Positions 1,555-46,046 of a stretch of 64,000 nt of DNA are shown one piece after another. The position numbers and the translations under genes were made by a program. Below the pieces are notes generated by a model. The model was given only the letters and a program-made list of their open reading frames with translations. It searched no databases and had not been told where the DNA came from. The DNA is from Gemmatimonadota bacterium (GTDB taxonomy: Bacteria > Latescibacterota > UBA2968 > UBA8231), in assembly GCA_038153405.1 (NCBI GenBank), contig JAYOYH010000010.1, positions 1 to 64,000 on the forward strand, in the 5' to 3' direction. Each line of letters begins with the position of its first letter. The first letter of the stretch is position 1.

Positions 1555-2496
1555 TCAATTCCCCGCTGTTGTGTGTTTCTTAACTGCGCCCCAGGAGCGC
1601 TGCTCAACGACAGTCGGAACAAAGATACCCTCTAAGGGCATCAGCATCAAATCGGCGAAGCGCTCCGAAAAACGGTAGGAGTTTAACTCGCCAGACAGCG
1701 ACCACTTTGCATCGAGTAAATCCGACTGGATATCAAAGTCGTTAAACTCGACGTTGAAACCGATGATCTCCGATTCCTGCAGCCGGTGCTCAACGCTCAA
1801 GAAGGAAGCGCTGACGTCAATCCGATCAAAGGGAACCAGTGACATCTCGTATCGGACGATGCCCCGTCCGTTCTCCTGCCCTTCGTAAACCACGGCCGCT
1901 TCAGTGTAGGGGCCATCGGCCAGCGCATACCACGCAGCGGCCGAATAGTTGACGAAAAAGTCTTCATCGGGCGGAGGACCAGCCAACACAAAGTGGCTGG
2001 CCTGCGTGCCGTTTACTTTGGCCTGCTCTTCGGGTGACAGTTCCGAAAAGTTGGCGAACTGACCGCCCGAGTGATCCGCATCGACGAATACTTCCAGCGC
2101 ATCGTCCAAAAAGATGCGCGTCGACGCGGTGCCTGCAGGCCGGTCGATCTGGTGTATATCATCGCTCACCTGCGCGGCGATATACAGCCTATTCTGCTCT
2201 TTGCTCCACCCCACGAACAGAGTCGCAGAAAAATCCTCGACATCTGTTTGACTTCCGCCGATCAGGTCGTGCAAATCGTCGGAAGTAATCCGATATGCAT
2301 CCCCGACGAGCCTCCAGTCGTCCAACTGGCCATCGACGGCGGGCTCAAAACCGGCGGGAAACTGAAACGCCTTGAAAACCTCCCCGCTCGGCGCATGCGC
2401 CCAACTGGGGACAGCTCCTGCAACAAAACAGATCAAAACCGCTGCGCGCACGGTTTTTACAACCGCACAGCACGCGCCGTAGTACTTTTCAAGCAT
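1555..2496 (-). CDS. Secreted CBM9/DOMON-like sugar-binding protein with C-terminal WGxxK tail
   Basis: Signal peptide ending SWA-H; VDGQLDDW, GWSKEQNRLYIAAQVSDD, DALEVFVDAD, IIGFNVEFNDFD resemble CBM9/DOMON-like domains; tail PTVVEQRSWGAVKK. Paralog of 39174-40079. Confidence 0.7.
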   Translation of the reverse strand: MLEKYYGACCAVVKTVRAAVLICFVAGAVPSWAHAPSGEVFKAFQFPAGFEPAVDGQLDDWRLVGDAYRITSDDLHDLIGGSQTDVEDFSATLFVGWSKEQNRLYIAAQVSDDIHQIDRPAGTASTRIFLDDALEVFVDADHSGGQFANFSELSPEEQAKVNGTQASHFVLAGPPPDEDFFVNYSAAAWYALADGPYTEAAVVYEGQENGRGIVRYEMSLVPFDRIDVSASFLSVEHRLQESEIIGFNVEFNDFDIQSDLLDAKWSLSGELNSYRFSERFADLMLMPLEGIFVPTVVEQRSWGAVKKHTTAGN

Positions 2497-2507
2497 TATT
2501 GCGCTGT

Positions 2508-2536
2508 ATGATAACTAATGGCTCTGGGCGTGTCAA
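2508..2536 (-). promoter_or_regulatory. Sigma70-type promoter TTGACA-N17-TATCAT
   Basis: Minus strand: TTGACA (2536-2531), 17-nt spacer, TATCAT (2513-2508), directly upstream of 1555-2496. Confidence 0.75.
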
Positions 2537-2686
2537 GCCATAAATAAATAGGATTAATAGCATGTTTTTTAAATAAAAGGGTTAACCTTGCTCGAGACAA
2601 ATACGCCCACTGAGCCCGCTGCCAAACGGACGCGCTGCCCTTAACGATTGGTGCTGAAAAACGCCCCGAAGCGGGACCGTGTCCCC

Positions 2687-5320
2687 CTACTCAACGCCGG
2701 CGTATACGGCGACAAAACTGCGCGTCCGCGTCTCGACCTCGTCGAATTCAAACTGGCGGCGGGCCAGTTCGAACCCTATAGTCGTCGTCAACTTGTATCC
2801 CTGGTACTCCGATAAATTGCTCAACTGCACCGTATTTACCAACCCGTGGAAGCTGTCTTCGCCTCCCGGCGGCGTGGGATCGAGCAGTTGGCTGAATATT
2901 TCGTATTCGATGCCCCACTCCACCGAACTGCTGCGCAAAAAGGGAAATCGCACGAGAAACGAGAAAAACTGGTCCCACTCTCGGCGTTTGGGCACGGAGC
3001 GCCTTACGTCGGCCTGATGGCGGTACTCGCTCTTCCAGCGCGGAACCCACGTTGTATTTAGCCAGTTCAGCTTGTATTCGACCTTGTCGATCAGCCCTAA
3101 AAAATAGGCGCGTTCGCGCTGGTCGCGCAGGGCCAACTCTATGGCATCATCCTGCTGCAGGTACAGTTGCCACTTCAGTTTATTTTCCCACCGCAACCCG
3201 CGAATGCGCGTGAAGTCAAAGCCCACCCAGGTGGTGTTGATCCACGTATCCTGCGCGGCAAGTGGGTCGGTTATAAGGCGCATGCCACCGCGCGTGTTGG
3301 CCGGCTGCTGCCACTGGAAAAGATCGTCCGCTATTGTGTCTTTAACTCGTCTGATATCCTGAAAGAGCACCCACTGCCCCCAGCCGAACAGATCGACGTT
3401 GGCCGCGCCGATTAGATACGTCGCCCGATTTTTGCGCTTCGCCGAGATCTGCCGCAGGCGCTGCTGTCCGACGGTAACTCGGATATCGGGGCTAAGGTGA
3501 AATCCGCCATAGGCATTATAGCCCTTGAAATCGGGCTTGTAGGGCAGGTCGGCCTGTTCGTCGTTTTCGAATCGATCGATCCAACCGTTGTGGTTCATAT
3601 CCACGCCGTAGAGAAATTCGGGACGATCGGCGTGAAAGCGCAGGAACGGCTCTTCGTAATCGGGTATGAGGTTGGGGCTGTCTTCGTTGTCGTTCTGATT
3701 GAAGTCCGAAATAAAGTCGTTGTTTTCATCCCAGCCCGGAAAGACTTCGCGGTCACCGGCCTCCCACCCCTTGCGGCGCCAATCGGGCTGGCGATCTTGG
3801 TCATCGTTGTCTTCGACGAATTCAAAGCGCAGAAAGTCGTTATCGAAATCGACCTGGCCGTTATTCCGGTCGACTACATACATATGCGTGGCGTAGCGCG
3901 GGCTAGTATCGAAAGCCTCGCCAAAAAAGAAGAACGGATACCGCGTGCGGGAAACGTTGAGCAACCAGGCCAGCGCCTCGTCTTCAGCCACCGCGTGGCG
4001 GTCGAGGCCGGGATTGGGATATTGGCGAAACTGGCGGTTCACGTTGACTTCCATATAGCTGCGGAAACCGGCCAGATCGTCGACCTCCAGCGTGAAACCA
4101 GCAATTTGGTTGGCGGTGGGAATACCGTAGTCAAAAGCGATGACGCGCTGGTTAGAATTGTCTTTTACATTGCCTGCAGCGCGTGCCAGAGGCAAGAAGG
4201 TTCCCTGCTGATCGGAGGCAATTTCAATGCGGTAGTCGTTGGCGATAACCAATTCGATACTCACGCGTTCGATAGCGGCGATATCGGGGCCTATATAGGT
4301 GCGATCGTTGAAGTCGTAGCTAATGTCAATAATCTCGCTGCCATCGGCTGCCAAGTAGCCGCGGCGCTGAAAGCCACCTTCGATCAAGGGGCGAAAACCG
4401 ATTTCGCTCCCCCGCGTCTGCTTGCCGTCCAGGTCGTAGATGAGAATATCGGTGGCAAAGAGCGCGCCGCCGCCCGTGCCGTCTTCTGGAGAATCGTCGC
4501 TTATGCGCACGTCGATGCGCGAAATGCTGGCAAAGTTCTGCGGTCCGGTGAGCGCGCCTTTGAACATATCGCCGCCAAACGATTCGAGCTGCGTGTAGGC
4601 CTGGTGCGCGTTGACAAAAGTGCCGCCGACCTTGGCAAAGTCGCCCATCTGCACTTCTATGCGACCGCCTATCAAATTGGTATTGTCCGTTTGTTGGCTC
4701 GGATTGGCGCCCGAGATGCCGGGCTCGCTTATGCGCGACATAATCAGCGTACCGGCGTATTTATCGGACATAAAGTCCCACTGCAGGCCATCGAAGAGTG
4801 GCTTGGAAAACGTCATCGGCGTAAGCGACGAGCGAATCTGGCTGCCGATGGTGATGGCATAGTGATACTGGCCCTTGTGGTCGGAAGCGATGACGAGATT
4901 GGAAAACCACGAGCTAAAGCGCCCAGACTTTTCGACCATCGAACCAAAGGGCTGGGGATTTTCCTGACGCCAATCGTAGATGAGCCAGCCGTGCATCAGG
5001 TAATTGCCGTATATGTCGTAGAAGTAGTCGCCTTCAAGCGCCGTCGAAACATAGCGCTGGTATAGCTGGTTGGCGTAGTTGGTATACTCGCGTGAATTCC
5101 ACCCGTACTCGGCGTAGAGTTCCTGCGGAACGTACCACTTGCGCACGACCGGATCGAGCGCATCAAAGAGAATGCCCGGACCCGTGGGCTCAAACGAGAC
5201 TTTGCCCCCGCGCTTCACCGTGCCGAGTCGAGCGCCGTATTCCTGTGCACTGGCACCTGCGCTACACAAAACGGCCAGCAGCAGCACGGCTCTGATTACC
5301 CTTTCTAACATATTCACCAA
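2687..5320 (-). CDS. Large exported protein, putative outer-membrane beta-barrel with Asp-rich Ca-binding loops (copy 1 of 3)
   Basis: Signal peptide ASA-Q; family motifs KWYVPQEL, LTPMTFSKP, DDSPEDG, DNDDQDRQPDW, PDYEEPFLRF, DMNHNGWIDRFEND; amphipathic strands at the C-terminus ending FVAVYAGVE. Start could be 5320, 5317 or 5311. Confidence 0.7.
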   Translation of the reverse strand: MVNMLERVIRAVLLLAVLCSAGASAQEYGARLGTVKRGGKVSFEPTGPGILFDALDPVVRKWYVPQELYAEYGWNSREYTNYANQLYQRYVSTALEGDYFYDIYGNYLMHGWLIYDWRQENPQPFGSMVEKSGRFSSWFSNLVIASDHKGQYHYAITIGSQIRSSLTPMTFSKPLFDGLQWDFMSDKYAGTLIMSRISEPGISGANPSQQTDNTNLIGGRIEVQMGDFAKVGGTFVNAHQAYTQLESFGGDMFKGALTGPQNFASISRIDVRISDDSPEDGTGGGALFATDILIYDLDGKQTRGSEIGFRPLIEGGFQRRGYLAADGSEIIDISYDFNDRTYIGPDIAAIERVSIELVIANDYRIEIASDQQGTFLPLARAAGNVKDNSNQRVIAFDYGIPTANQIAGFTLEVDDLAGFRSYMEVNVNRQFRQYPNPGLDRHAVAEDEALAWLLNVSRTRYPFFFFGEAFDTSPRYATHMYVVDRNNGQVDFDNDFLRFEFVEDNDDQDRQPDWRRKGWEAGDREVFPGWDENNDFISDFNQNDNEDSPNLIPDYEEPFLRFHADRPEFLYGVDMNHNGWIDRFENDEQADLPYKPDFKGYNAYGGFHLSPDIRVTVGQQRLRQISAKRKNRATYLIGAANVDLFGWGQWVLFQDIRRVKDTIADDLFQWQQPANTRGGMRLITDPLAAQDTWINTTWVGFDFTRIRGLRWENKLKWQLYLQQDDAIELALRDQRERAYFLGLIDKVEYKLNWLNTTWVPRWKSEYRHQADVRRSVPKRREWDQFFSFLVRFPFLRSSSVEWGIEYEIFSQLLDPTPPGGEDSFHGLVNTVQLSNLSEYQGYKLTTTIGFELARRQFEFDEVETRTRSFVAVYAGVE

Positions 5321-5334
5321 TTCGCGGAAACCTC

Positions 5335-7260
5335 TTAGTAGGCTATGGCTATAGTGCCCGTATGAACTTCTTCAAAGGCGTCGGCGCGTATGCGCATGAC
5401 CCAGATATAGGAACCGGGCACTAGGCCCTTGCCATCTGCCCCACGGCCATCCCAGCGCTTTTCGACCGGACCGATGCGGTGTTCATCGGAAAATACCGTA
5501 TGCACTTTGCGCCCGGCCAAATCGTAGATCTCCAGCACTACGGGGGTTGGCAGCGTTAGCTGCAGCAAGTTGAAAAAAATGTCGAGCTCGTCGTTGACGC
5601 CGTCGCCGTTGGGCGTCAACACTCGAGTGGAAAAGAGGATTTGGCCGACGAGCTTTCCAACCTGCGCTTGGGGAATGGCCACCGCTAAGCTAGCCAATTC
5701 GTCGCTGTCCTCAGGGCCAAACGATACGGCGTTGCCCGCTTCGAGGATCTGCGGCACGGACGGCCAGCGACTGTTGTAGGCGCGCCCAGAAAAGGTCGAG
5801 CCAAAGCGAAAAATAGGCAGATCAAATGTGAACTCCAGCAGATCGCCGTCGCCGTCGATCAGGGGAAAGGACAGCACGAAGCGATCCTCGTTATTGGCCA
5901 CGACGTCGAAGTCGACCGCTTCGCCATTGATGCGCAGGTTGCGAATGGCCGACACCTCGATATTGGTGTCGACTTCCAACCGATCGTAACCGCGCACGCT
6001 GCCGTTGGCCTTGAGCAGCACGGCGTAGTTAAAGCTAGCCGCTTTTTCGGCTTCGGCCAGACGCGGAAACACCTCCGCGCGCAGGGTGTCGGCGATGGGA
6101 GGCTGCAGGTAGTCAAACTGCAGGCGGGCCACCTGCCGCGCATCGAATATGCGGCCGTTGAAGTCGAAGCGGAACTGCACGTAGCGCCGCGGACCCGGTG
6201 CCGTAATTAGCTGGCCATTCTCGGCCGACTTCCACGGGCTCCAATGCTCTTCGTCCTCTATGAGCGGCCCTCTGTTGAGGCGATCCAGCTGGTAGTAGTC
6301 CGCTCCGGGTACTTCAATTACAAAGGGATCGCCGAACTCGCCCACCCCCTTGCGCTGGTAGACGACGGGGGTGTCGTCTAGACCGGTGCGAACTCGCACG
6401 CCGAGTGCGGAAAAGGCTGCCTCACCGACGGATTCCTCGATCCAGCGCACCCGACCAATCGTCGCCCGATCGCCCAGATCGATTAGATCGGTGAGGTAGC
6501 GCGCTTCGCTCAAATAACCCGTGCCATAGACCTCGACTTCATCGATCTCAAACGGCGTCGAAGACAGCGAGCGCACCTTGATAAGGCGCACGTACTGCGG
6601 TGGAACGTTCACGTCTACAATGGGCGACTCATTTTTTTCGTCGCGTGCGACCAATTCGTCGGGGGCATTCTGCGCCGTATTGGTCTGGCGATCGTTAATC
6701 CACACCTCGTATCCGCGCATAAAGTAGTCCTGGAACGGTGCGTTGGGCGTGGGCACCACCGTATTGCGCGGATAGAAGCGCACGCGGTGAATGCCCACCG
6801 GCATGCCAAAATCGAGGATAACTAAAATTCCGCGCGCATTGGCCTCTGGATTGGACAGCGTTGGCTTGCGCTCAAAGGCCACGTTGTGATCGCCGTTGAC
6901 CGTTCCCTCTAGCTGCAAGCGGCGCACCGCGCTGGAAATCAGCAACGAGTTGGGTGCCGTAATGCTGCCGCGGTCCAGCAAGACGCGCGATGCGATATTT
7001 TCCTCCAGTTCAAAAAAGCGCGGGCTAATCCATCCGGGGCGCTGCAGAAAGTCGATAGCATCTTCGGGCGTGTTAGTCGTATCCACTCGGCCGATAGCCG
7101 AGTCGCGCACGAGAATCTCCGGATCGATGCTACCGCCCCCTTCGCTCCAAGGCCGACCGCCCAAGCCAAGAGTAAACGTGCGCACGGACTGGCCGCTGGC
7201 CGGCGATATGCCCAGCGCCGCGCCGACGAGGATCAGTAGGATAAGCCGCTGCCATCGCAT
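5335..7260 (-). CDS. Secreted discoidin/galactose-binding-like protein with FlgD-Ig/CHU_C-like C-terminal domain
   Basis: Signal peptide; LDFGMPVGIHRVRFYPR, EIDEVEVYGTGY, WSPW...PGPRRYVQFR; C-terminus TPNGDGVND...IYDLAGR...WDGRG...PGSY...IAIAY. Confidence 0.75.
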   Translation of the reverse strand: MRWQRLILLILVGAALGISPASGQSVRTFTLGLGGRPWSEGGGSIDPEILVRDSAIGRVDTTNTPEDAIDFLQRPGWISPRFFELEENIASRVLLDRGSITAPNSLLISSAVRRLQLEGTVNGDHNVAFERKPTLSNPEANARGILVILDFGMPVGIHRVRFYPRNTVVPTPNAPFQDYFMRGYEVWINDRQTNTAQNAPDELVARDEKNESPIVDVNVPPQYVRLIKVRSLSSTPFEIDEVEVYGTGYLSEARYLTDLIDLGDRATIGRVRWIEESVGEAAFSALGVRVRTGLDDTPVVYQRKGVGEFGDPFVIEVPGADYYQLDRLNRGPLIEDEEHWSPWKSAENGQLITAPGPRRYVQFRFDFNGRIFDARQVARLQFDYLQPPIADTLRAEVFPRLAEAEKAASFNYAVLLKANGSVRGYDRLEVDTNIEVSAIRNLRINGEAVDFDVVANNEDRFVLSFPLIDGDGDLLEFTFDLPIFRFGSTFSGRAYNSRWPSVPQILEAGNAVSFGPEDSDELASLAVAIPQAQVGKLVGQILFSTRVLTPNGDGVNDELDIFFNLLQLTLPTPVVLEIYDLAGRKVHTVFSDEHRIGPVEKRWDGRGADGKGLVPGSYIWVMRIRADAFEEVHTGTIAIAY

Positions 7261-7263
7261 GGA

Positions 7264-14305: not shown

Positions 14306-14514
14306 CGCCTCAATTGTCTTTGCTCGCGCCCCGTTGCCTAGCGCCAACCCCATGCTATTTGCCTTGTAAATGAACGAGTTAAATAAACGGCATAGGGCGA
14401 CATTTTCAAATAATTCCACCCGTTGAAAGCCATTCAAAAGACGCACTGACCTTCCGTTCGGTCATACAAATAAGCTCGCAAATCCAATTGTGGGGAACGG
14501 CCTTTTTTCTTAGT

Positions 14515-17249: not shown

Positions 17250-17275
17250 AGGCGCGCCACATCGGGTCTAACACC

Positions 17276-29569: not shown

Positions 29570-30334
29570 TCAGGGGCTGGTATTGGCTACTCTGCGCCCG
29601 TCGGGATATACCCGCCCAATTTCGCGCTGAAAGAGCATCTCCACGTCGGTGGTCTCTACCGGGTCGCCTTTGTAGTCAAAGCGCACGACAATATCGTCAA
29701 TGTGCACCGTCAATAGGTCGACATCGCTAGCCAACGGTTCAAATACGATATAGCCCTCGCTCTCCTGGGCAGAAAAAATCTGCTCGTCTTGATACATCGT
29801 CCTGCGCAGAATGCCATCGCGTTCCTTCCAGACAATAAACGAATTGCCGGGTATGCCCGGCGAATCGCCTCCACTGCCGCCACCGGCGTAGCGGCGATAG
29901 TAAATGGATAGCTGGTCTCTGGTCAACGCATAGTATTTGCGGCCGTTTGACGTCGTGATATACACCTTCTGCGGATCGAGGTAGACCTTGGGATACTCGT
30001 AATTGGACACGTTGAGGCGAAAAATCGTCCACCGTTTGGGCGTATCCCCGGTGTCAAAATACTCCGAGTTGCCAAAGGTATACGGGTTGCGGGACTCGGC
30101 CCCGTCGTTGGAATAAGCGCTGAACTGGCGATTGAGTTCTTCGTCAGTCATCGGCCGCAGGGTGATGGCCAGGCGCGCCTGGTTATAGGTAACGCTGCCA
30201 TCGTCGGCAACTTCTTTGTCCTCGCCCTGCTCCGCTTCGCTCAGCGGCTGCAAATCATCTGCATAGTATCGATATGAACAACCCGTCCATCCGACGGCTG
30301 CGGCGAAGAAGAGCAGGTAACAGATTTTCAACAT
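29570..30334 (-). CDS. Lipoprotein of unknown function, paralog of 811-1551
   Basis: Lipobox WTGC, SD GGAG; PMTDEELNRQF, NPYTFGNS, VxRFDY/F and IGRV/IY shared with the paralog. Confidence 0.8.
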   Translation of the reverse strand: MLKICYLLFFAAAVGWTGCSYRYYADDLQPLSEAEQGEDKEVADDGSVTYNQARLAITLRPMTDEELNRQFSAYSNDGAESRNPYTFGNSEYFDTGDTPKRWTIFRLNVSNYEYPKVYLDPQKVYITTSNGRKYYALTRDQLSIYYRRYAGGGSGGDSPGIPGNSFIVWKERDGILRRTMYQDEQIFSAQESEGYIVFEPLASDVDLLTVHIDDIVVRFDYKGDPVETTDVEMLFQREIGRVYPDGRRVANTSP

Positions 30335-36558: not shown

Positions 36559-39009
36559 TTAATAGGCGACGGAAATGAGTTTCGTTCTCGCCTCGCCCGC
36601 ATCGTCCGCTTCCGTCGACAGCCGCAATATGTATAGTCCTGGCGGCACCAGGCTGCCCATGTCGTCCCTTCCATCCCACTGTTCTGAATAGCCACCTGAG
36701 TTCAGCAAGCGCTCGATGAGGCGCAGGCGGTTCCCATTCAGATCGTATACCGCAAGCAGGACCGCGCGGGGCTCTAACAAGCGCTGGACGTCAAAGCGGA
36801 CCTCTAACAGATCGTTGACCCCGTCGCCGTTCGGTGTAAAAGGGTTGGGAGTCGTTTCGAAGTTCGCAACTAAATTGCTCCCCTGCGCCGAGATATCGGC
36901 GATAACCGCAAGCGAGTTGCGGTCGGAAAGCTGCTCTGTAGCATCAAAATCGATGACATCGCTGCCCTCGACCGGCTGCGGCAGAAAGAGAGCCAAGGTG
37001 TCGGCAGCTGCGCCCAACGTGAGGATTCCGTTATTGGTAAAGCGGCGATCGAAGCTCGATGCCAGCGTATCCAAGAACACGTTGGCCGCGAAGTTGGTGC
37101 GGAAGTCAATCACGCGCGCGCGGAAGTTGACTTTCACAACCGCCTCCCGATCCAGCCCATCGTCACCGGGGGCAATCGTCGGAAATCCGATCACAAATTG
37201 CTCGTCATCAACGAATAGCGCGCTGAACTGATCATCATCGAAATCGGGGTTTTCGCTGGCAGACAACATGCGCACATCGCCGGCACCCATATCGATTGAC
37301 ACAGATTGAATGTTTTCGACGCGGGCAGGCGTGAAGACCTGCAGCCGATTGAAACCGTTGTTATTCGCTCCCAGGGACGCTCTAATCGCAATGGCGAAGG
37401 TCGTGTCTATACCAGCCTTGACGTCGACCGCGGGAGCGATCTCGCCGACCACGGCGTCGGTGATCTGCGGCGCCGAGTATTCAAAGCGCAGGTTGCGCAC
37501 AATCGTCGCCGACTCCGATGATAAACTTCTGAACTCAACATCGATCTGAATAAAGGGCCTACCACTCGGCGAGTTGATGAGCTGGCCATTGGTCACCTGC
37601 TGCACGCCGCTCCAGTACTCGAGATCCGGCTCAATTTTCCTGCGCAAGTTGCCGGGCAGCGCCTGATATTCGGCGCGCGTCAGACGAACGGATTCGCGCT
37701 CGTCGGGCAGCAGCGCGCTGAATATTTCGCGAACTTCTAGGTTGAACTGTGGGTCGTTCAAGTCGATCTGCTCGCCGCGCGTCTTCGATCCGGCGCGACG
37801 GTCCACTACAATAGCGTTTTCCGGCTTCCACTCGACCTGACGCTCGAATTCGTTGACGCGAAACAGCACATCCGGCTCGGCATTAACACCCGTCTGAATG
37901 CGCACGATGGCACTCGACTTGGTCGGGTCACCGACCTTATCCTCTTCCCAAAAAATGCGACCAAGGGTCGACGGCGGCAGCGGCAAGGCGATAGAGCGAT
38001 AGGTCGCCTGCGGCACAAAGCCGTCGGCAAAGAATTCCATCTCGCCCAAATCATAGTCGAGTTCGGTCTGAAAGTCCATGCGCGCGTAGCGCATTTTGGC
38101 GGGCGGATCGAACGCCACCGCCACTGTGTCCTCGACGTTAACGGGCGCACTCTGCTCGGGAACAAAAGTGGGAAACGTCGGGGCAATTTTGGTGAATATG
38201 GGAAAGGCCAACTGACCGACGGTCGGATCGTCCAAGCTCAAGCCGGCAATGACTTTTTCCGTGCCGGCAATACCCCGATAGAACGTGTAGGCAGAAATGC
38301 GAACGGGCGCCTCCGGACTGGGATATACCCGCATGAGGCGAATGGGAAAAAAGCGTCCGAGGTCGACATACAGCGTCCAGACCTGCTTGACGTCCTGCCC
38401 AACGCGGTCGATGCGCTCAAAGTGGGTAAGCGGATCGCCGTCAAATACGCGGCCCAATCCCTCTTGGAGCCGCTGTAAGGTCAGCGCACGCTCAAAAATA
38501 CCCAGTGTCGTGAGATTGAGACCCTTATTGTATTTGTCTCCTCCCGGCGGGCGCGGAAACGACTCCGCTACGTTAATCAGCGCAGCGACCGTATCCACGC
38601 CGGCTAGGCGCAGCATCTGCACGTCTTCCAGCGACCGAGGAAAGTCACCCCAGCGCGAAATGAGCACATCACCAGCGGCCACGGAGCGATCGCCGAGGGT
38701 GGCATCCAGCTGCGCTACGACTTCGGATCGGGCAACGTGTTGCGAAAATTCAAATAGAATGGAGTCAGCACCAGCGCTGCCCTCCTCAACCTGCGGGACA
38801 GGCACCATTTGCACCGGCTCGATCGGCGCAATCCCGTCGGGAACGCGTAGGAGATCGACGGCTTCGAGATAGCGCTGCTCGGAGATAGGTCCCTGTTTGG
38901 CATCAACCCAGGAGATATCTTGCGGAATGGAAAAGATCTTGAGTTCGGCAGGGCTTTCGCCCACCAGGCCCGCCAGCACTGCTACGGCGATACGCTTTGA
39001 CCATCTCAT
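36559..39009 (-). CDS. Secreted discoidin-like protein with FlgD-Ig/CHU_C-like C-terminal domain
   Basis: Start reassigned to ATG 39009 (MRWSKRIAVAVLAGL...). VFDGDPLTHF, VDLGRFFPIRLMRVYP, SPSGRPFIQ; PNPFTPNGDGVND...WDGRD...ISVAY. Confidence 0.75.
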   Translation of the reverse strand: MRWSKRIAVAVLAGLVGESPAELKIFSIPQDISWVDAKQGPISEQRYLEAVDLLRVPDGIAPIEPVQMVPVPQVEEGSAGADSILFEFSQHVARSEVVAQLDATLGDRSVAAGDVLISRWGDFPRSLEDVQMLRLAGVDTVAALINVAESFPRPPGGDKYNKGLNLTTLGIFERALTLQRLQEGLGRVFDGDPLTHFERIDRVGQDVKQVWTLYVDLGRFFPIRLMRVYPSPEAPVRISAYTFYRGIAGTEKVIAGLSLDDPTVGQLAFPIFTKIAPTFPTFVPEQSAPVNVEDTVAVAFDPPAKMRYARMDFQTELDYDLGEMEFFADGFVPQATYRSIALPLPPSTLGRIFWEEDKVGDPTKSSAIVRIQTGVNAEPDVLFRVNEFERQVEWKPENAIVVDRRAGSKTRGEQIDLNDPQFNLEVREIFSALLPDERESVRLTRAEYQALPGNLRRKIEPDLEYWSGVQQVTNGQLINSPSGRPFIQIDVEFRSLSSESATIVRNLRFEYSAPQITDAVVGEIAPAVDVKAGIDTTFAIAIRASLGANNNGFNRLQVFTPARVENIQSVSIDMGAGDVRMLSASENPDFDDDQFSALFVDDEQFVIGFPTIAPGDDGLDREAVVKVNFRARVIDFRTNFAANVFLDTLASSFDRRFTNNGILTLGAAADTLALFLPQPVEGSDVIDFDATEQLSDRNSLAVIADISAQGSNLVANFETTPNPFTPNGDGVNDLLEVRFDVQRLLEPRAVLLAVYDLNGNRLRLIERLLNSGGYSEQWDGRDDMGSLVPPGLYILRLSTEADDAGEARTKLISVAY

Positions 39010-39100
39010 TCCTTGGCTCTCCGGGTCAGATTCCTCATTCAATACGCGATAAAGGGCGAGATACTAAACGGCAGGAAGGTTAGAGCACGCGTTTGTCCTG

Positions 39101-39173: not shown

Positions 39174-40079
39174 TTACTCGACCGAGGCCTTGATACGACC
39201 CCAAGAATCGCTCTCAACAGCCGTGCCACCACCACCGGCACCGACCAAGCGACCATCGACGAAACGCTCAGCGTAACGCCAGGTAGCGGCCTGACCGGAC
39301 AGGGTGTGGAACGCGCGGTAGTTGGAGGGCTCGATGTCGAAGTCAGGCACCGAAACCTGGAAGCCAATGATGCCACCGTCGACCAGGTTCGTGGCCTGGC
39401 TATCATCGGGGCTGTTCCAGATCAGGTCGTCAAACGGCGTGACGTAGAACTCGAAGATCGAGGTCGTCGGACCCTCGCCAACCGAGCCACCGCCGCCATC
39501 GGCATAGGGCAGCGCGTTGACCCACTCGGCACCGGCGCCCTGATAACCGACGTGGCGGCCATCGGGGGTGTCGGCAATAGCGACATACTGCTGAGCGGTG
39601 CGGTTGTTGTTCAACAGCTTCTCGTCGTCGGTCCAGTTCTCGTCAGCCGAACCCGTGTAGTCACCACCGGTGTGGTCGCCGTCGAGCATGAACTCGATAG
39701 CGTCGTGACGCCAGAGCTGACCGAGGTCGCCACCAGCATACTCGTTGATGTACACGTTATCAACGCGCTCCATGGCCATGTAGATGGTGCTGGAGTTGCC
39801 GTTCCAGCCTACCCAAATGCGGTAGTCGAGGTCGGCCGGATCATACTGGGCACCTTCGCCCACGGTCGGATCCTGGTAGAAATCAGTCGTGACGAGCGGA
39901 GCATCGCCAACGACGTCTTCCCAGTCAGCAACGCTGATATCGCGAATATCGATATCAGACAAATCCGAATCGGGAATTTCGTAGATCAGGTAAACAGATT
40001 CGCCTATGTGGGCGCTTGCGGTACCGCTCATGCCGCCAACGAGGCCGGCAACGATCAGAGAGAGTAGAGACTTTCTCAT
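39174..40079 (-). CDS. Secreted CBM9/DOMON-like protein with C-terminal WGxxK tail
   Basis: Start reassigned to ATG 40079 (SD GGAAGGAG; MRKSLLSLIVAGL...ASA-H). VGWNGNSSTIYMAMERVD, DAIEFMLDGDHTGG, IIGFQVSVPDFD; tail GGGGTAVESDSWGRIKASVE. Confidence 0.75.
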   Translation of the reverse strand: MRKSLLSLIVAGLVGGMSGTASAHIGESVYLIYEIPDSDLSDIDIRDISVADWEDVVGDAPLVTTDFYQDPTVGEGAQYDPADLDYRIWVGWNGNSSTIYMAMERVDNVYINEYAGGDLGQLWRHDAIEFMLDGDHTGGDYTGSADENWTDDEKLLNNNRTAQQYVAIADTPDGRHVGYQGAGAEWVNALPYADGGGGSVGEGPTTSIFEFYVTPFDDLIWNSPDDSQATNLVDGGIIGFQVSVPDFDIEPSNYRAFHTLSGQAATWRYAERFVDGRLVGAGGGGTAVESDSWGRIKASVE

Positions 40080-40310
40080 TTGTTTGGACTCCTTCCAAAA
40101 GATCTTTTGAATCACACTGTACTCATACGTAAAGAAGGCTTCTGCGGCATCGATATGACACCGCATGAAAACTGAAAATACCGAAGCATTTTCAGGAAAA
40201 TTTCAGTTCGCCATCACCTCCTTTCGCCGTGGAATGCGCAGAAAACAAAATGCGACCATCGCCCTTCTCTAAAGAGAGAACGCGATGGGAATGCGTTAGA
40301 TAAAAAATTT
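40080..40310 (-). promoter_or_regulatory. Long structured 5' leader with three hairpins and an orphan perfect Shine-Dalgarno
   Basis: Hairpins at 40256-40288, 40172-40195 (cUUCGg loop then UUUU) and 40143-40165; AAAGGAGGUGAU at 40224-40213. Confidence 0.6.
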
Positions 40311-40316
40311 CACCTT

Positions 40317-40345
40317 ATGATATGTTAAAGTACAGCAGGTGTCAA
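40317..40345 (-). promoter_or_regulatory. Sigma70-type promoter TTGACA-N17-TATCAT
   Basis: Minus strand TTGACA (40345-40340), 17-nt spacer, TATCAT (40322-40317). Confidence 0.75.
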
Positions 40346-40426
40346 GGCAAAACTGCCCTCGCCACACCCAGCCCTAAGGTAGTAGAAAATAATACGTTAT
40401 GATTCGAATGGGGCAAATCAGTGCCT

Positions 40427-41284
40427 CTATTTATCTTCTTCCTGCTCATCCTGAGCCCGAAAGCGTATTTGTTTTACGTGGTGCATGCCAATGGAAAACG
40501 GGCCAGAAGGGGTCTTTCCCGTCAAGGCCGCATTGACGCGGTCGTAATAGCTCCTGTCGGTTTCCCCCGACAGGCGCACGGTGCTGGCATCGACAGTGCC
40601 CATCACCGTTCGCCCGTTCCAGTAGATGGCCGTGATGGGGCGAAACTCCTCGGCGGAGCCGCTGTCGTCGAAATCTATTTTGTCGACTTTGTCCAGGGGG
40701 ATAAAACGCTTGTTGCGACCGCGAAAAAAGTCGAGGCGCAGCTTGCCGCGAAAGCGCAGGTCTTCCACTTCGAAGCGCTTGCCCTCCAACGTGATGACGG
40801 TAGCCTTTAATACGGGCTCCTCGACGACCTCCTCGCCTTCGGGGTGCTGCAGGATGATTTCCTGCACATCGCTGACCAAGATGAAGAACGGCCCCAGCGA
40901 TGTGACGCCCGTAAAGCGCCGGCCGCTGCTGCCTCCTCCAACTGCGTCCTGGTGCGGAGCTGCCCCACCACCGGTCAACATGAGGCCCCTCTCTTTCTTT
41001 CCAGACCGCATCGACAGAGATACGGCCTGTTCCTCGTCTCTTCCCTCCCCTTCAAAGCGGATTCGATCGATCAGTACTAATTGCAGCATTCGCCGCTGAT
41101 CGCCGATATAGACTTCGATTTCTTGACGTCCCTGATACGCAAAGCGCTCTACCTTGTGCTGGTTACCATAGCGATCAATCACGATCGCCTGCGCGGCCCC
41201 TCCTTCGATAACGCCGCACAGAGTGAGCAATAGACCGAGCAACACTATCAGGTGACTACGAGCCTGTTCACGTGTAGATTTCAT
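40427..41284 (-). CDS. Exported hypothetical protein with internal duplication
   Basis: Signal peptide; two similar beta-rich halves ending TGVTSLGPFFILVSDVQEI and TGKTPSGPFSIGMHHVKQI. Confidence 0.65.
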   Translation of the reverse strand: MKSTREQARSHLIVLLGLLLTLCGVIEGGAAQAIVIDRYGNQHKVERFAYQGRQEIEVYIGDQRRMLQLVLIDRIRFEGEGRDEEQAVSLSMRSGKKERGLMLTGGGAAPHQDAVGGGSSGRRFTGVTSLGPFFILVSDVQEIILQHPEGEEVVEEPVLKATVITLEGKRFEVEDLRFRGKLRLDFFRGRNKRFIPLDKVDKIDFDDSGSAEEFRPITAIYWNGRTVMGTVDASTVRLSGETDRSYYDRVNAALTGKTPSGPFSIGMHHVKQIRFRAQDEQEEDK

Positions 41285-41308
41285 ACAGATCGCTCCGCGT
41301 TGAGTCTA

Positions 41309-41998
41309 TTATTGTTCGCCTTCGTCGGCCGCCCCTTCGCCGGGCTGTCCCGGAGTCGGCGGAGGTCCGATAATGATATTCTGCGTCTGGCCCATATTGA
41401 CCTGCACCGGACGAATCTCATCGCTGCCGCTGCTGGACAAGTTTTCAATGCGCACTTTGTACTCGCCGGTCGGCACGATAAAATACCGCACTTCGGTCGA
41501 CGTCATGCCGCGCCCTAGAACCGTGCGCAGATTGTAGTCATATATAAGAAAGGGCACCTGGCGACGCTCGCTGCCCTCAAAGAAGATGAGCTGAAAGCGC
41601 CCAATGGGAATGGTCGCATACACTTCCTGTCCCATATTGACCTGCACTTCCTTCTCCACGCTGTCCTCGACATCCGTATTGACCACGACCAAATAGGATC
41701 CCGGCGGCAGATCGACGTACTGGGGAAAGGCGCCATAACCCGTTTCGTAGCCGACGGGCGAACTAGCCGCAGAGCGCGGCGAATCGGCATACACCTCTTC
41801 GCCCGTATCGTTATCAATGACGTAGAAGTTGACCTCGTTGATTCCGCCCGCTTCCAACATGAGACGGCCCTTGCCCTCGGCAATCGGCGGTGGACCGTAG
41901 GCTGTGCCGCTACCGGTCGTGGCACAGCCTACCAACGCGACGAGCAGCGCAAAACAAGCGCAAAACCAAACCCTATTCCGCAACCATCCTGTAATCAT
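41309..41998 (-). CDS. Lipoprotein with beta-sandwich (prealbumin/Ig-like) repeats
   Basis: Start reassigned to ATG 41998 (GAGG upstream), lipobox LVGC; LPPGSYLVVV and VPTGEYKVRI repeats. Confidence 0.65.
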   Translation of the reverse strand: MITGWLRNRVWFCACFALLVALVGCATTGSGTAYGPPPIAEGKGRLMLEAGGINEVNFYVIDNDTGEEVYADSPRSAASSPVGYETGYGAFPQYVDLPPGSYLVVVNTDVEDSVEKEVQVNMGQEVYATIPIGRFQLIFFEGSERRQVPFLIYDYNLRTVLGRGMTSTEVRYFIVPTGEYKVRIENLSSSGSDEIRPVQVNMGQTQNIIIGPPPTPGQPGEGAADEGEQ

Positions 41999-42069
41999 TG
42001 TGCCTACCCTCCTCTGGCATTTGAGCCAATAGCCCGTTAAGCGGCCAGACCGCAATGCCTTCATTGCTC

Positions 42070-43662
42070 CTAATGAACGCGCAGCGGCACTAGCGTGAAG
42101 TGACGCGATGCATCGGACTGGCTCTTCACATGAGAAAGAAACCTTTTCTCGTCTCTCCACAAGTGGGGATACGAAGCGGGGGTGGAAACCCCTCGCTCTA
42201 CCAGCACGCGCCAGAATGCCTTGTCGCGCATGGCAAAGGCTGTGGCGACCAAGAAAAAGTCCGCGCCGGCTTCGGCCAAGCTGTCTAGGCGCGAAATGGA
42301 AAATGCGTCCGGCGTGAGCTGCCAGCCCTTGCGATGGCAATAGTATAACATGGTCGGACTCTGTGCGCGAAACGGCGCGCCGGCGTTTTCGTCCAGATCG
42401 CCAACGACTAGCAGGGCGTCGCTCGGCACCTTGGTATCGACGATCTTTCCCGCAGCAAAACAGCTCTCGTAGTAGGCGTGTAGATTATTGGGCTGTTCGT
42501 AGTAGGGGCTCAGCGCTCCGGCGCTGTGCGCCAGCGTTACGCCGCTCACAACGCCTAAGAAGACGACGCGCGGGACTGCGTTTCCGTTCCGCATCCAAGC
42601 GGCGCGGTGCATCCACTGGTAGAGCCAATCGACTCCGCGCGCAGCCAACAGCGCCCCGAACGGCACAAAGGGCAACTGGTAGTAGTGCAGCTTGCGATTG
42701 CCCTCTGGCACAAGTGCCAAATACAGCAACAGCCCCAATGCCCAACCCCACAGTCCCCAGGCATGCCGCGCCCTCTGCTTCCATAAGGCGAACGCACCCA
42801 TCCCCAGCGCCGCGGCACCCACTGGCGTATAAACCACGTCGATAAAACGCCAGCCCATCTGTTTGTAAAAATCAATGGACCACAGCACGCTTCGATCCCA
42901 CTTATCGTAGCCGTAGCGGTTCCAGATGCCAAACGTCAGGCCCGTCTCGGCAAACAAATCTGCCGCGTGCGCATACCACATCGCGGCGGGCAGCAGCACT
43001 GCTAGTGCATAGACCCATAGGGCAGGGCGCAAGAGAAATCGCCATCCCCAGCGCTCCAAAGCGAGCCCGACCAAGGCAAAGCCGAGGTACAGGGTGGGAA
43101 TCTTAACCATGAAGCACAGCGCAGCGCTGGCAGCGGCACCCAAAGCGTACGGTAAACGCCCGCTCTCCGCCCAGCAATGGAACAGCAGCAGCGCCGCTAC
43201 GCTCAGCAGGAGCATGAGCGGCTCGGGCATAAAAACGCGTCCGAAATATATGCTGAGCGGGGTGAAGAGAAAGAAGAATACTGCCCACAGAGCGACCCGT
43301 TCGTCGCCGAATATTCGCCGGGCAAAAACAAATAGCAGAAAGGCCGCTGCCAGCGAAAACAGGGCAGAGATCAGGCGTCCCAACCCTTCGTGGACGCCCC
43401 CGTAGACACCGTATACCGCGGCGACTATAAAAGGATACAGGGGAAAATTCATTTCTACGAAGCCGGGCGTATTGCCGCGCCAGTCGACCCGGGGGTAGAG
43501 CAGATCGTACCCCTCTTCGTAAAAGTTGCGCGCAATCGCCGCCGTATCCGTCTGGCGCCACGCCTGTTTGTCTATGAGGGGTTCGCCCATCTCGACGAGG
43601 CGCACAGCCAACCCCAACGCCAGCATCCCCAGCAGCCACAGCCGGGCGGTCTGCCTGGACAT
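42070..43662 (-). CDS. GT-C fold membrane glycosyltransferase (ArnT/PMT_2-like)
   Basis: AWRQTDTAAIARNF, EMNFPLYPFI, YFGRVFMPEPLML, HYYQLPFVP; many TM helices. Confidence 0.8.
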   Translation of the reverse strand: MSRQTARLWLLGMLALGLAVRLVEMGEPLIDKQAWRQTDTAAIARNFYEEGYDLLYPRVDWRGNTPGFVEMNFPLYPFIVAAVYGVYGGVHEGLGRLISALFSLAAAFLLFVFARRIFGDERVALWAVFFFLFTPLSIYFGRVFMPEPLMLLLSVAALLLFHCWAESGRLPYALGAAASAALCFMVKIPTLYLGFALVGLALERWGWRFLLRPALWVYALAVLLPAAMWYAHAADLFAETGLTFGIWNRYGYDKWDRSVLWSIDFYKQMGWRFIDVVYTPVGAAALGMGAFALWKQRARHAWGLWGWALGLLLYLALVPEGNRKLHYYQLPFVPFGALLAARGVDWLYQWMHRAAWMRNGNAVPRVVFLGVVSGVTLAHSAGALSPYYEQPNNLHAYYESCFAAGKIVDTKVPSDALLVVGDLDENAGAPFRAQSPTMLYYCHRKGWQLTPDAFSISRLDSLAEAGADFFLVATAFAMRDKAFWRVLVERGVSTPASYPHLWRDEKRFLSHVKSQSDASRHFTLVPLRVH

Positions 43663-43669
43663 GAAGGCG

Positions 43670-44845
43670 TTAGAAGGGGCGCCAATGGGGAGACATATCG
43701 TCGCGGTCGTCGTTGTTCGTCAAGTTGACGGGCATACCAACGGGAGAGGGCAGATCATCCAAGTCAAAGCCGCGCGTCGATACGCGGTAAATGTCGTAGT
43801 CGTCTTCGTTCATCTTGCCCGCATAGGCAATCGACTTGCCATCACCCGACCACGTGGGCTCTTGCTCGTAGGTTTTTTCGGCGACGGAGATGCGCACCCG
43901 CGCACTGCCATCGGCATTCATCAGCATCAACTCTTGGCCGCCAAACCGCTCTGAATTATAGGCGATGCGCTTGCCCAGCGGCCCCCAAGCGGCAAACCAA
44001 TCGTATTTCTTATTGTCCGTCAGACGCACTCGATTCGAACCATCTACGGCGATGAGATAGAGCTCGTCATTGCTGTCAAAAACCGATGAAGTAAAGGCGA
44101 TGAGTCGGCCATCGGGCGACCACGAAGGTTCGCGCCCCTCGACCAGTTTGCGCTTATTGCCGCCATCGGCATCCATCAGCCAGATTGACTTATCGCCGTC
44201 GCGCTGGCTCTCAAAAGCGATGGTCCGGCCATCGGGCGACCAGACCGCGCGCTGGTCGCGCTCGGCGTGCTCGGTCAAGCGCCGTCGATTCGAACCGTCT
44301 GCGTCCAACGCATAAATGTCGAAATTGGTCATCACATCGCCGCTGGTAAACAGGATCTGCTGGCCATCGGGCGACCAAGACGGGTGCTGCTCAAACTCGG
44401 GCGTATCGGTCAACTGGCGCCGCTCGGAGCCATCTGCGCGCATCGTAAAAAGGTCCCAGTTGCGCGCGCTCTGCGGGGTCGATGCATACAGGATAGTACC
44501 GGCCAGCGATTCGCCGGCATTGCTCCCAGCCGGCACCTCAAAGGTGACCTTGTAGTCTTGGACCCCGCTCATTGGAGGCGCTTCCAACTCCAGCACCCGC
44601 GTATCCAGGTAGCTTCCAGCCGAGACGTTGACCACATACGTTCCGCTGCGCAACTCGGCGTCGCTGTCCGGACCGGGAAAGACGTAGGTTCCGGCCGATA
44701 CCAAGTTGTTGAACTTGTATTGCAGGTCGTTGGCATCTAAGCGCACGTGCTGCCCATCGCCGCCCTTCACCTCTATAGTAACCTGGTTTTTTCCACATGC
44801 GGCCAATAGAAAGACCGCTGCAAAAAGCGAAAAAACTATGCGCAT
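43670..44845 (-). CDS. TolB-like PD40-repeat beta-propeller lipoprotein
   Basis: Start reassigned to ATG 44845 (SD GGAGGG), lipobox LAAC; repeated PSWSPDG..IAF, ADGSNRRRLT. Confidence 0.85.
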   Translation of the reverse strand: MRIVFSLFAAVFLLAACGKNQVTIEVKGGDGQHVRLDANDLQYKFNNLVSAGTYVFPGPDSDAELRSGTYVVNVSAGSYLDTRVLELEAPPMSGVQDYKVTFEVPAGSNAGESLAGTILYASTPQSARNWDLFTMRADGSERRQLTDTPEFEQHPSWSPDGQQILFTSGDVMTNFDIYALDADGSNRRRLTEHAERDQRAVWSPDGRTIAFESQRDGDKSIWLMDADGGNKRKLVEGREPSWSPDGRLIAFTSSVFDSNDELYLIAVDGSNRVRLTDNKKYDWFAAWGPLGKRIAYNSERFGGQELMLMNADGSARVRISVAEKTYEQEPTWSGDGKSIAYAGKMNEDDYDIYRVSTRGFDLDDLPSPVGMPVNLTNNDDRDDMSPHWRPF

Positions 44846-44874
44846 ATATCCCTCCGCAACGTGTTGATATGCTC

Positions 44875-45555
44875 TCAATCCAATCCGCTGAGCCGGCGCA
44901 GGACTCCGTCCAACTCGTCAATGACGGCGGACAAATCGGCCATTCCCTGGGCTCGTATAGGTTTGCCAACGCGAAAAAAGACGCGCGAGCGCGGCCTGAT
45001 ATAGCTCTCGTATTCGATGCCAATGGGAACAATGGGCACTTCAATACCCCACCTTTCCTGCGTCCGCAATAGGTGCTCTACCACCTCCTTTTGCACGGGC
45101 CCCATACGGTCCTGGTAGCGCATGCCTTCGGGGTGGGAAATCACCAATTCGCCGTGCCTATACAGCCACGATAAATAGGCCTGCATATCGCTGTTGGCCT
45201 CTCGTGCACGCCGTATCGCTTCGCGCCGCTGCTCCCGATCCTTCAGCCGGCGCACATCTTTGGGGCGAGTGACCTTAACGCCGCCGGCCAGTTCCAGAAT
45301 GCCCCACAAGCCGCGCTTCATTACAAAGGTGGCAAAGCGACCCGTGTAGCGATACAGGGAAATCCCCTCGACGATAATATCCCGGTAGGCGTGGTGCTTG
45401 GGCAATAGCAGTCCTGCCCCTTCGCGCGGCAGGTTTTCGACGCCTTCGGCAACCACCTCGTGAAAGTGCAGCAACCCCGCACCGCACAAGCGCACGAGTT
45501 GGGCCAGCGCATCAATGCGCCGCAGGCTGAGGTCGTCGTCCCGCACTTCGCCCAT
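44875..45555 (-). CDS. Lysophospholipid acyltransferase family (PlsC-like)
   Basis: EGVENLP, HxxxxD (HHAYRD), HPEGMR, VPIVPIGI motifs. Confidence 0.8.
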   Translation of the reverse strand: MGEVRDDDLSLRRIDALAQLVRLCGAGLLHFHEVVAEGVENLPREGAGLLLPKHHAYRDIIVEGISLYRYTGRFATFVMKRGLWGILELAGGVKVTRPKDVRRLKDREQRREAIRRAREANSDMQAYLSWLYRHGELVISHPEGMRYQDRMGPVQKEVVEHLLRTQERWGIEVPIVPIGIEYESYIRPRSRVFFRVGKPIRAQGMADLSAVIDELDGVLRRLSGLD

Positions 45556-45563
45556 CGCAGCGC

Positions 45564-46046
45564 CTAGTGGAATAGTTCCTTGATTTTTCCCCAGGTGCTC
45601 TCGTCCACATCCGTGCTCATATGGGCGCCAGACAGGGAACGCACGACGGGTTCCATATCGCTTCCACTGCCGTGGGAATGGATGCGCGCATCGGGGTAAA
45701 CGAGCACGGCGTAGTCGCCGCTAGCGCCAGCCCGCTCGACGATGGAATCGGGGATAGCCCACTCGCCATCTATGGCTTTTGTGCGCGGCCAAACGACGCC
45801 GATTAAGTCAAAGGTATGTGCGGACGCGTTGGATATGTTCTGCCAGCTGGCCAGGCGCTCTACCTGTTGGAAGTGGTCTGGTGAGTACAAGTAGAACAGA
45901 CGCAGAGTGCCATCGCCTGCCGGGCCATAGCCGCCTTCACCCGCAATCCCGCTGCCGACGAGGATAAAGCTCAAGCAACACAGCACCACACTTACCCTAG
46001 TCACAACCCACCTGCTTGCCACCTTGTTACTCGGCGCGAATCGCAT
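45564..46046 (-). CDS. Small exported protein with C-terminal WGxxK tail
   Basis: Hydrophobic N-terminal stretch; tail STDVDESTWGKIKELFH. Start uncertain (20-nt overlap with the upstream gene; a later GTG is possible). Confidence 0.6.
   Translation of the reverse strand: MRFAPSNKVASRWVVTRVSVVLCCLSFILVGSGIAGEGGYGPAGDGTLRLFYLYSPDHFQQVERLASWQNISNASAHTFDLIGVVWPRTKAIDGEWAIPDSIVERAGASGDYAVLVYPDARIHSHGSGSDMEPVVRSLSGAHMSTDVDESTWGKIKELFH

Follow-up and report, generated by a model that had tools for sequence, protein, structure and literature searches.

A short C-terminal WGxIK tail as a putative docking or sorting tag on exported proteins of Latescibacterota

Tailed proteins of the window

This analysis deals with a short peptide, here called the WGxIK tail or simply the tail, that closes a number of exported proteins in bacteria of the phylum Latescibacterota. 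The window, i.e. the whole stretch of 64,000 nucleotides that was analysed, comprises positions 1 to 64,000 of contig JAYOYH010000010.1 (contig C10 below) of assembly GCA_038153405.1. This source genome (G000) has 4.86 Mb in 93 contigs with 59.4% G+C. A preliminary description of the window had reported such a tail at the extreme C-terminus of three proteins, two of them CBM9-like and the third unrelated, and had interpreted it as a portable tag on exported proteins. All three tails are present, each at the end of an open reading frame (ORF) on the minus strand:

1555..2496, minus strand: P0001, CBM9-like exported protein, 313 amino acids (aa) (Pfam CBM9_1)
39174..40166, minus strand: P0002, CBM9-like exported protein, longest ORF 330 aa (CBM9 fold of the model)
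45564..46046, minus strand: P0003, exported protein, 160 aa, no known family (translation, Pfam/NCBIfam scan)

P0001 ends in ...PTVVEQRSWGAVKKHTTAGN, and its degenerate tail at 1555-1617 reads TVVEQRSWGAVKK plus 6 residues; these coordinates already include the six residues beyond the stretch that had been quoted originally. An equally degenerate tail is found at the same position of the orthologue in genome G102. The match of P0001 to Pfam CBM9_1 (PF06452) reaches 25.5 bits at a cut-off of 23.4. P0002 ends in ...GGGGTAVESDSWGRIKASVE, and its tail TAVESDSWGRIKASVE at 39174-39224 stands behind a GGGG linker; its orthologues begin near residue 30 of the longest ORF, at MRKSLL. Both proteins are paralogous (29% identity in BLAST, E 2e-23), and a Foldseek search with the P0002 model found the CBM9 modules 7nwn and 1i82 (E 2e-9, TM score 0.72-0.76 on the target). 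The bodies of P0001 and P0002 are of the CBM9 / DOMON-like fold, with sugar binding as a putative function. In the P0002 model the body is folded and the tail residues 312-330 have pLDDT values below 50; as modelled, the tail extends flexibly beyond a Gly/Pro linker and does not pack against its own protein.

P0003 ends in the tail STDVDESTWGKIKELFH at 45564-45617. It matches neither P0001 nor P0002 in BLAST nor any Pfam or NCBIfam family, in line with the initial assignment of two related carriers and one unrelated carrier. In its orthologues from two other families of the phylum the body is 30-32% identical, yet 9 of the 10 final residues are identical.

A further observation concerns the CBM9-like carriers themselves. 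In the protein encoded at 39174-40079 of the window and in its paralogues (alignment A4) the mature protein starts with His right after the AxA signal-peptidase site, and A52 and H53 are invariant in 18 orthologues of this P0002 alignment. The next-best fold matches of the P0002 model after CBM9 are the haem-binding DOMON-like subunits NxrC and EbdC. The mature N-terminal His and this likeness may indicate a binding site for metal or haem, in contrast to a plain lectin.

Motif and statistics

Throughout the source genome the ending [ST]AVExx[ST]WGx[IV]Kxx(F/V/L)x-stop is shared by 17 ORFs, none of which was found to have an internal copy. The consensus is [ST]-A-V-E-x-x-[ST]-W-G-x-[IV]-K-x-x-(F/L/V) followed by 1-3 more residues, about 16 (16-20) residues in total, and it is joined to the carrier bodies via a flexible Gly/Pro linker. 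Behind the invariant Lys there are 3-9 mostly polar residues (15 in the carrier with an FGE-sulfatase body) without any hydrophobic stretch, and the last residue is variable (E, N, H, Q, K, R, D, F). In the genus of the source genome the residues after this Lys are relaxed (ASVE, TTFQ etc.); most relatives end in WGxIKxLF[KR]-stop.

A hidden Markov model (HMM) of the tail gave 17 matches of 23.7-33.5 bits among 71,449 stop-to-stop ORFs of the source genome, all ending 0-12 residues from the stop. The best non-member reached 9.9 bits and the maximum in a control with reversed ORFs was 11.1 bits. A regular-expression scan of 4,230 non-overlapping genes for WG.[IVL]K yielded 16 terminal copies (at most 15 residues from the C-terminus) versus 5 internal ones, with about 1.2 terminal copies expected (binomial p = 1e-16). 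With the looser pattern WG.[IVLMA]K in 25,036 raw ORFs, a copy at most 15 residues from the end was seen in 23 ORFs, besides 25 internal copies.

Because this first HMM was built from the same 17 tails that it scored, each tail was also scored by leave-one-out, with a model made from the other 16. Eleven of the 17 tails then score 16.6-30.9 bits, among them the non-CBM9 carriers fasciclin, LTXXQ, C24 and C19 with 16.6-23.4 bits. The remaining six fall into the noise range (8.0-12.6 bits), including those of P0001 (10.0) and P0003 (8.0), which are therefore diverged members. The tail of P0001 is accepted because it lies at the homologous position within the CBM9-like family and that of P0003 because its orthologues in the two other families end canonically, in S[TV]WGKIKELFR. 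Beyond the 17 there are degenerate candidates: C14 with WA instead of WG, C11 without the TAVE part and an LTD-domain protein on contig C85 of the source genome with the variant tail TAVTSANWAAVKRYR, again with WA instead of WG.

No Pfam or NCBIfam model matched over the tail in any carrier scanned (3 + 14 + 5 carriers, plus carriers of relatives). A literature search by motif spelling, in a library that lacks many journals, found no paper on the tail, and nothing was found there on Latescibacteria or Latescibacterota in connection with type IX secretion or sorting signals. In curated resources the tail appears to be undescribed. Since no curated model covers it, tailed proteins at present carry annotations like those of freely soluble proteins.

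Carrier proteins and their orthologues

With the tails removed the 17 bodies of the source genome fall into 10 BLAST clusters (7 + 2 + 8 singletons). Eight of the carriers are CBM9-like, counting one singleton that also matches CBM9_1; Pfam names among the others are LTXXQ, FGE-sulfatase and fasciclin, besides a weak metallopeptidase match. A sample of 39 carriers from six genomes forms 19 clusters, with 18 carriers being CBM9-like and the remaining 21 distributed over 18 clusters. In relatives the bodies include HmuY, BNR/sortilin-type propellers, NHL, DUF5818 and a weak cohesin-like protein, and the ending WGxIKxLF[KR] recurs on HmuY, propeller, DUF5818 and other bodies.

All 17 carriers show an N-terminal hydrophobic signal-like segment. 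Signal peptides were called by a crude rule over the 4,230 genes, complemented by inspection by eye: the rule recognises 11/17 carriers compared with 699 of 4,230 genes (16.5%; Fisher p = 1e-5), and in the other six the segment, seen by eye, stands behind an internal Met or GTG start. A lipobox was found in none of the 17. Thus the tail is strictly terminal and is carried by signal-peptide proteins of many unrelated folds. It is also far more constrained than the bodies, as the eight CBM9-like paralogues are only 22-31% identical overall and T, V, E, W, G and K of their tails are invariant. The portable tag proposed in the preliminary description has been borne out in so far as the tail is not confined to one family, is not found internally as often as terminally and is not common on cytoplasmic proteins. 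The reading as a portable C-terminal signal is well supported.

The HmuY homologue of genome G023 (L039:4138-11493) has a plain signal peptide and the tail, and it sits between ExbB/ExbD/TonB-like genes and a barrel resembling TonB-dependent receptors. The best-studied HmuY is a lipoprotein and thus lipid-anchored.

Orthologues of P0002 retain the tail almost without exception. In a set of 119 (55-92% identical) it closes 116 proteins; of the other three, one is a fragment and two deviate. At the level of genomic loci the P0002 subfamily (n = 80) comprises 73 with the tail, two with a C-terminal domain (CTD) of the type IX secretion system (T9SS), one that is masked and four that run off the locus. 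This locus search, made with the orthologue alignment A4, reached only metagenome-assembled genomes of Latescibacterota type, some of them labelled Gemmatimonadota by their submitters; the submitter labels on the subfamily records are Latescibacterota, Gemmatimonadota or Handelsmanbacteria. The two deviating proteins, P0039 and P0071, match P0002 through ...RFVDGRLVxAGG and then continue with an extra domain and a type A T9SS domain (Por_Secre_tail, 32.9 bits). Loci L093 and L113 (2 of 76 readable loci) show the same exchange and may partly represent the same proteins. In genome G009 (family f10) a PKD domain takes the place of the tail at the end of five CBM9-like homologues. From the swaps of the tail for a CTD and for a PKD domain it follows that the tail stands where anchoring or secretion modules otherwise stand.

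These data also bear on the simplest alternative, namely that the tail is just the conserved structural end of the CBM9-like family and that the matches outside it are due to chance or misassignment. CBM9-like proteins are indeed the largest carrier class (8/17 here, 18/39 sampled), and six tails sink into noise in leave-one-out scoring. Against this stand the four non-CBM9 carriers that keep 16.6-23.4 bits when left out, the canonical endings on HmuY, propeller, DUF5818 and other bodies of relatives, the Gly/Pro linker that separates the tail from the fold together with the disorder of the tail in the model, and the G009 homologues in which a PKD domain replaces it. This explanation is already contradicted and we consider it extremely improbable.

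Distribution in the phylum

The survey covered 153 genomes of the phylum, each at least 80% complete, in 14 families (f1-f14). Two tail models were applied: A1, made from tails of the source genome only, and A6, made from 38 tails of seven genomes. The tail was found in 88 of the 153 genomes with A6 (81 with A1) and in 10 of the 14 families, with a total of 2,078 matching ORF ends in the 88 genomes (A6):

f1: tail in 68/68 genomes
f5, f6, f7, f8, f9, f11, f12: tail in all genomes scored
f10: tail in 6/11 genomes, 1-2 diverged tails each
f13: tail in 1/1 genome
f2, f3, f4, f14: tail in 0/3, 0/22, 0/31 and 0/4 genomes (A6), total 0/60

In five near-complete tail-free genomes no tail-model score exceeded 17.3 bits even at E <= 5. 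The distribution of the tail across families of the phylum is all-or-none. The CBM9-like family is absent from four of the five tail-free genomes sampled and present in G009.

A second alternative dispenses with any dedicated machine: the tail could form a short amphipathic C-terminal helix that sticks to a membrane leaflet or to peptidoglycan, or it could be a mark for a periplasmic tail-specific protease. In the P0002 model residues 316-329 appear as a low-confidence helix, alignment A6 shows a spacing of W(0), I(+3) and F/L(+7) that fits one helical face with the Lys flanking it, and a protein of periplasmic type (LTXXQ) is among the carriers. Amphipathic C-terminal anchors are known from PBP5 and PBP6 and provide a precedent. 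However, such a helix would have only about 10 residues, the invariance of W-G and K and the conservation of T-A-V-E suggest that recognition is specific and not a matter of bulk hydrophobicity, and a general affinity for membranes leaves the clean loss in whole families (0/60) unexplained. We therefore regard this alternative as improbable.

Neighbouring genes and candidate partners

If the tail is recognised by a partner, candidates may be sought among the genes that accompany the carriers. The following features of the window are relevant:

1..777, minus strand: probable PorV/PorQ-family outer-membrane barrel, N-terminal 259 aa only, cut by the contig start (NF033709)
811..1551, minus strand: lipoprotein of ~250 aa with lipobox Cys, no known family, candidate docking partner directly downstream of P0001 (alignment A3)
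2687..5320, minus strand: giant outer-membrane-type protein, 877 aa, unnamed family (no Pfam/NCBIfam family), upstream of P0001
7264-10056 and 30345-33098: paralogues of the 2687-5320 giant protein
29570..30334, minus strand: second copy of the 811-1551 lipoprotein family, 47% identical to the 811-1551 product, closing the P0002 cassette
46027..47064, minus strand: lipoprotein-like protein, 345 aa, no known family, directly upstream of P0003 (conserved gene order)

Near the 17 carriers, at a distance of no more than four genes, four small proteins of 235-254 aa are encoded; all are lipoproteins whose lipobox Cys is invariant. The lipoprotein gene directly follows a CBM9-tail gene in f1 (three cases in the source genome), f6 and f11. 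The model of this lipoprotein is a confident beta-sandwich (pLDDT 86.6), for which Foldseek returned only weak generic beta-sandwich matches from the PDB (best E 1e-3, TM score 0.3-0.5). It occurs in 92 of the 153 genomes and in the same ten families as the tail (all genomes scored in f1, f5-f9, f11 and f12, 10/11 in f10, 1/1 in f13), and it was found in 0/60 genomes of f2, f3, f4 and f14. Where it is single-copy (G008, G009, G006, G024), its gene sits within a cluster, hereafter the ExbBD cluster, that encodes ExbB, ExbD, a TPR protein of ~1,080-1,180 aa, a DUF4159 protein and small and giant barrels.

The product of 1-777, two genes downstream of P0001, scores 72.7 bits with NF033709 over its retained 259 residues, at a cut-off of 90; its full-length orthologue in G102 showed a weak UPF0164 match in a scan with Pfam only. 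The PorV-like paralogue is present in 63 genomes and in 0/60 of the tail-free ones (E <= 1e-25). G102 belongs to the same genus as the source genome, and the gene order on its contig is giant barrel / P0001 orthologue / lipoprotein / PorV-like barrel / TPR-1079aa / ExbB / ExbD / DUF4159. Because of this synteny, contig C10 at its start and contig C85 of the source genome (L054) at its end are probably adjacent. In that case the left edge of the window would continue into the cluster found on C85, and the first cassette of the window would belong to the cluster of TPR-1079aa, ExbB, ExbD and DUF4159. Between the two partial PorV-like pieces on C10 and C85 the overlap is only 73% identical, and two paralogues may be involved, as is the case in G008. 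Strong matches of the TPR-1079aa protein are restricted to the ten tail-bearing families; weak ones elsewhere (E 1e-11 to 1e-17) probably reflect generic TPR similarity.

The giant barrel-type family has 23 paralogues in the source genome, and nine of its members (877-1,045 aa) are encoded within four genes of eight carriers. The longest ORFs of the giant barrel gene 7264-10056 and of the upstream CTD gene 9933-12431 overlap by 124 bases, and the true start of the former probably lies further downstream.

The order LarA-like / 345-aa protein / P0003 is conserved in G008 and G023 (families f9 and f12), and the distribution of the 345-aa lipoprotein is similar to that of the tail, if less clean. 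P0003 belongs to a co-directional run (40427-49228 of the window) of an NTP-transferase, the LarA-like protein, the 345-aa lipoprotein-like protein, P0003, an acyltransferase, a PD40 propeller and a PMT_2 glycosyltransferase, which may be an operon for envelope glycan or lipid modification. Further along the window (51400-54351) a 983-aa protein, unusually long for its family, has four FapA_N stretches followed by a FapA beta-solenoid domain.

Phylogenetic profiling had been suggested as a way to a cognate processing protein. The lipoprotein, the PorV-like barrel, TPR-1079aa and the 345-aa lipoprotein all track the tail, and just because they roughly share its distribution the phyletic profile cannot single out one reader; in this respect the approach failed. 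No sortase-like gene was found beside the 17 carriers.

Relation to the type IX secretion system

The tail occurs alongside a T9SS. Canonical PorU is encoded on contig C91 of the source genome (665.7 bits) with PorV beside it (257 bits on NF033709). A second C25 protein (1,858 aa), itself ending in a CTD, lies on contig C48 (L052:5701-11277); it scores 256-294 bits on the PorU model, below the cut-off, and 255.6 bits on NF052324 'PorU2' (cut-off 450). In total 19 CTD-bearing genes are found within four genes of the 17 carriers, several of them in the window:

36559..39042, minus strand: T9SS-CTD cargo gene (CHU_C/FlgD_ig-type) next to P0002 (Pfam)
33160-36501, 5335-7260, 9933-12431 and 12431-14446: further CTD genes (Pfam)

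In three families (L037:2993-8051, L048:1334-8063, L139:107-5323) the gene right behind that of a giant type A CTD protein (1,450-1,990 aa) encodes a tailed protein of ~210 aa, which has a weak cohesin match (E 8e-4, below cut-off).

These relations raise a third alternative, in which the tail is a minimal type IX signal that replaces the CTD of ~80 residues and is read by SprA/PorV together with PorU or with the second PorU-like C25 sortase. It is favoured by the exchange of the tail for an extra domain and a type A CTD (2/119 orthologues, 2/76 loci), by the frequent co-encoding with CTD cargo including the ~210-aa protein behind the giant CTD protein, and by the mere presence of the long C25 protein. 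Moreover, the tail has one invariant Lys, and in type A CTDs a single conserved Lys, important for function, makes contact with PorV (PMC10994853).

Against it, in genus g12, 23 of 28 genomes carry 25-54 tails along with a single C25 gene (~1,250 aa), and therefore a second sortase is not a required partner here. The tail-free families f3 and f4 have one C25 gene per genome, in the long form of ~1,900 aa where the frame length is listed, and the equally tail-free f14 has 2-3. A C25 peptidase is present in 57 of the 60 tail-free genomes, so a T9SS alone is not sufficient for the tail. No tailed neighbour was found for the long C25 gene on contig C48. As the copy number does not track the tail and this neighbour is missing in the source genome, a second PorU-like C25 sortase was rejected as reader in this phylum; a literature search on PorU2/PorV2 returned nothing relevant. 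The tail is also not recognisable as a truncated type A CTD, with an hhalign probability of 0.3% between the tail profile A6 and ten type A CTDs (A10). Finally, ~1,850 square angstroms of a folded domain are buried at the solved interface between CTD and translocon (PMC10994853), an extent that a peptide of 16 residues could not mimic. We regard a type IX signal in miniature as rather unlikely, though as the main alternative to the role proposed below.

Proposed role of the tail

We propose that the tail is a docking or sorting tag and that the lipoprotein and the PorV-like barrel of the ExbBD cluster are its most likely reader, a combined reading to which we tentatively assign a probability of about 40%. 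In this proposal the carriers would be exported by Sec and the signal peptide would be removed. In contact with a partner the tail, unstructured on its own, is predicted to adopt a fold, and the likeliest candidate for this partner is the pair of ~250-aa beta-sandwich lipoprotein and PorV-like barrel in the cluster joined to the P0001 operon, beside the giant TPR protein, ExbB-ExbD and the DUF4159 protein. Soluble lectin-like or binding proteins without a lipid anchor would thereby be tethered beside the co-encoded giant barrels and T9SS cargo, and the tail would hold its carriers at the outer membrane.

That a nearby PorV-like barrel handles the tag had already been suggested in the preliminary description. 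This part is plausible, considering the conserved order of carrier, lipoprotein and barrel leading into the ExbBD cluster and the absence of the barrel from the 60 tail-free genomes. It is weakened by the failure to find the paralogue at E <= 1e-25 in the tail-bearing families f8, f10, f11 and f13 and by its position beside only one of the 17 carriers of the source genome. Several other observations likewise speak against the proposed docking. A giant barrel is encoded near only 8/17 carriers, and for most non-CBM9 carriers the ExbBD cluster is not in the vicinity. Genomes G006 and G008 have 25-26 tails and one copy of the lipoprotein, which fits a shared reader and no relationship equally well. 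Few independent gains or losses stand behind the co-distribution, as whole families have or lack the tail, the CBM9-like family, the lipoprotein, the TPR protein and the 345-aa lipoprotein together, and the six tails in the noise range have to be counted here as well. In addition, LTXXQ (Spy/CpxP-like) proteins are normally periplasmic, and because one of the carriers is such a protein surface display cannot be assumed.

A bolder version would see in the WGxIK tail the address label of a previously unknown outer-membrane sorting or docking machine that is driven by the proton motive force, consists of ExbB-ExbD, a DUF4159-headed transducer, the giant TPR scaffold, the PorV-like barrel, the beta-sandwich lipoprotein and the giant barrels, and works beside the T9SS and independently of it. 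As a whole this is speculative and rather unlikely.

C-terminal sorting tags such as LPXTG, PEP-CTERM and the T9SS CTD have each led to a dedicated envelope machine. If the tail is truly a docking or sorting signal, it would allow the envelope or surface proteins of Latescibacterota and of related uncultured phyla to be predicted from sequence by a simple rule, the 16-residue peptide would be a handle for fishing out the reader, and a possible function would emerge for the widespread and unexplained clusters of ExbBD, TPR protein and giant barrels. The main additions made here to the preliminary description are the phylum-wide all-or-none pattern, the rejection of the second sortase, the swaps of the tail for CTD or PKD domains and the physical linkage of one carrier operon with the cluster of ExbBD, PorV-like barrel and lipoprotein.

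Comparison with known systems

The β-signal of outer-membrane proteins, a terminal F, W or Y that closes a barrel strand, was ruled out as an explanation of the tail since the last residue is variable and the carriers are soluble folds (CBM9, fasciclin, LTXXQ).

Tripartite sorting signals (LPXTG/sortase, PEP-CTERM/exosortase, GlyGly-CTERM/rhombosortase, MYXO-CTERM) resemble the tail in being short motifs that end many unrelated exported proteins of one genome, and the tail shares with them its lineage-restricted, all-or-none occurrence. In contrast with these signals its motif is followed neither by a transmembrane helix nor by a basic cluster, and the carriers lack a detectable sortase-like gene beside them.

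With the T9SS CTDs (TIGR04183/PF18962; FlgD_ig/CHU_C-type) the tail has in common the location at the extreme C-terminus of Sec-exported proteins from many families, in a bacterium of the Fibrobacterota-Chlorobiota-Bacteroidota (FCB) group that possesses a T9SS. A few orthologues have a CTD at the same junction instead, carrier genes are found together with CTD cargo genes and close to the gene of a probable PorV-family barrel, and one Lys of the tail is invariant. The differences are its length of 16-20 residues, compared with a folded seven-stranded domain of 70-100 residues in CTDs, the lack of any family-model match or profile similarity, the independence of C25/PorU copy number and the absence from sister families that do have a T9SS.

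A third likeness is offered by the carrier and anchor partners of the T9SS (type B CTD with PorP/SprF barrels; PorZ-PorQ, PorU-PorV), where a tagged protein adjoins a small outer-membrane partner that could hold it in the envelope. Here, the candidate partner differs by including a lipoprotein of no known family, ExbB-ExbD takes the place of GldLM, and the tag is a peptide instead of a domain.

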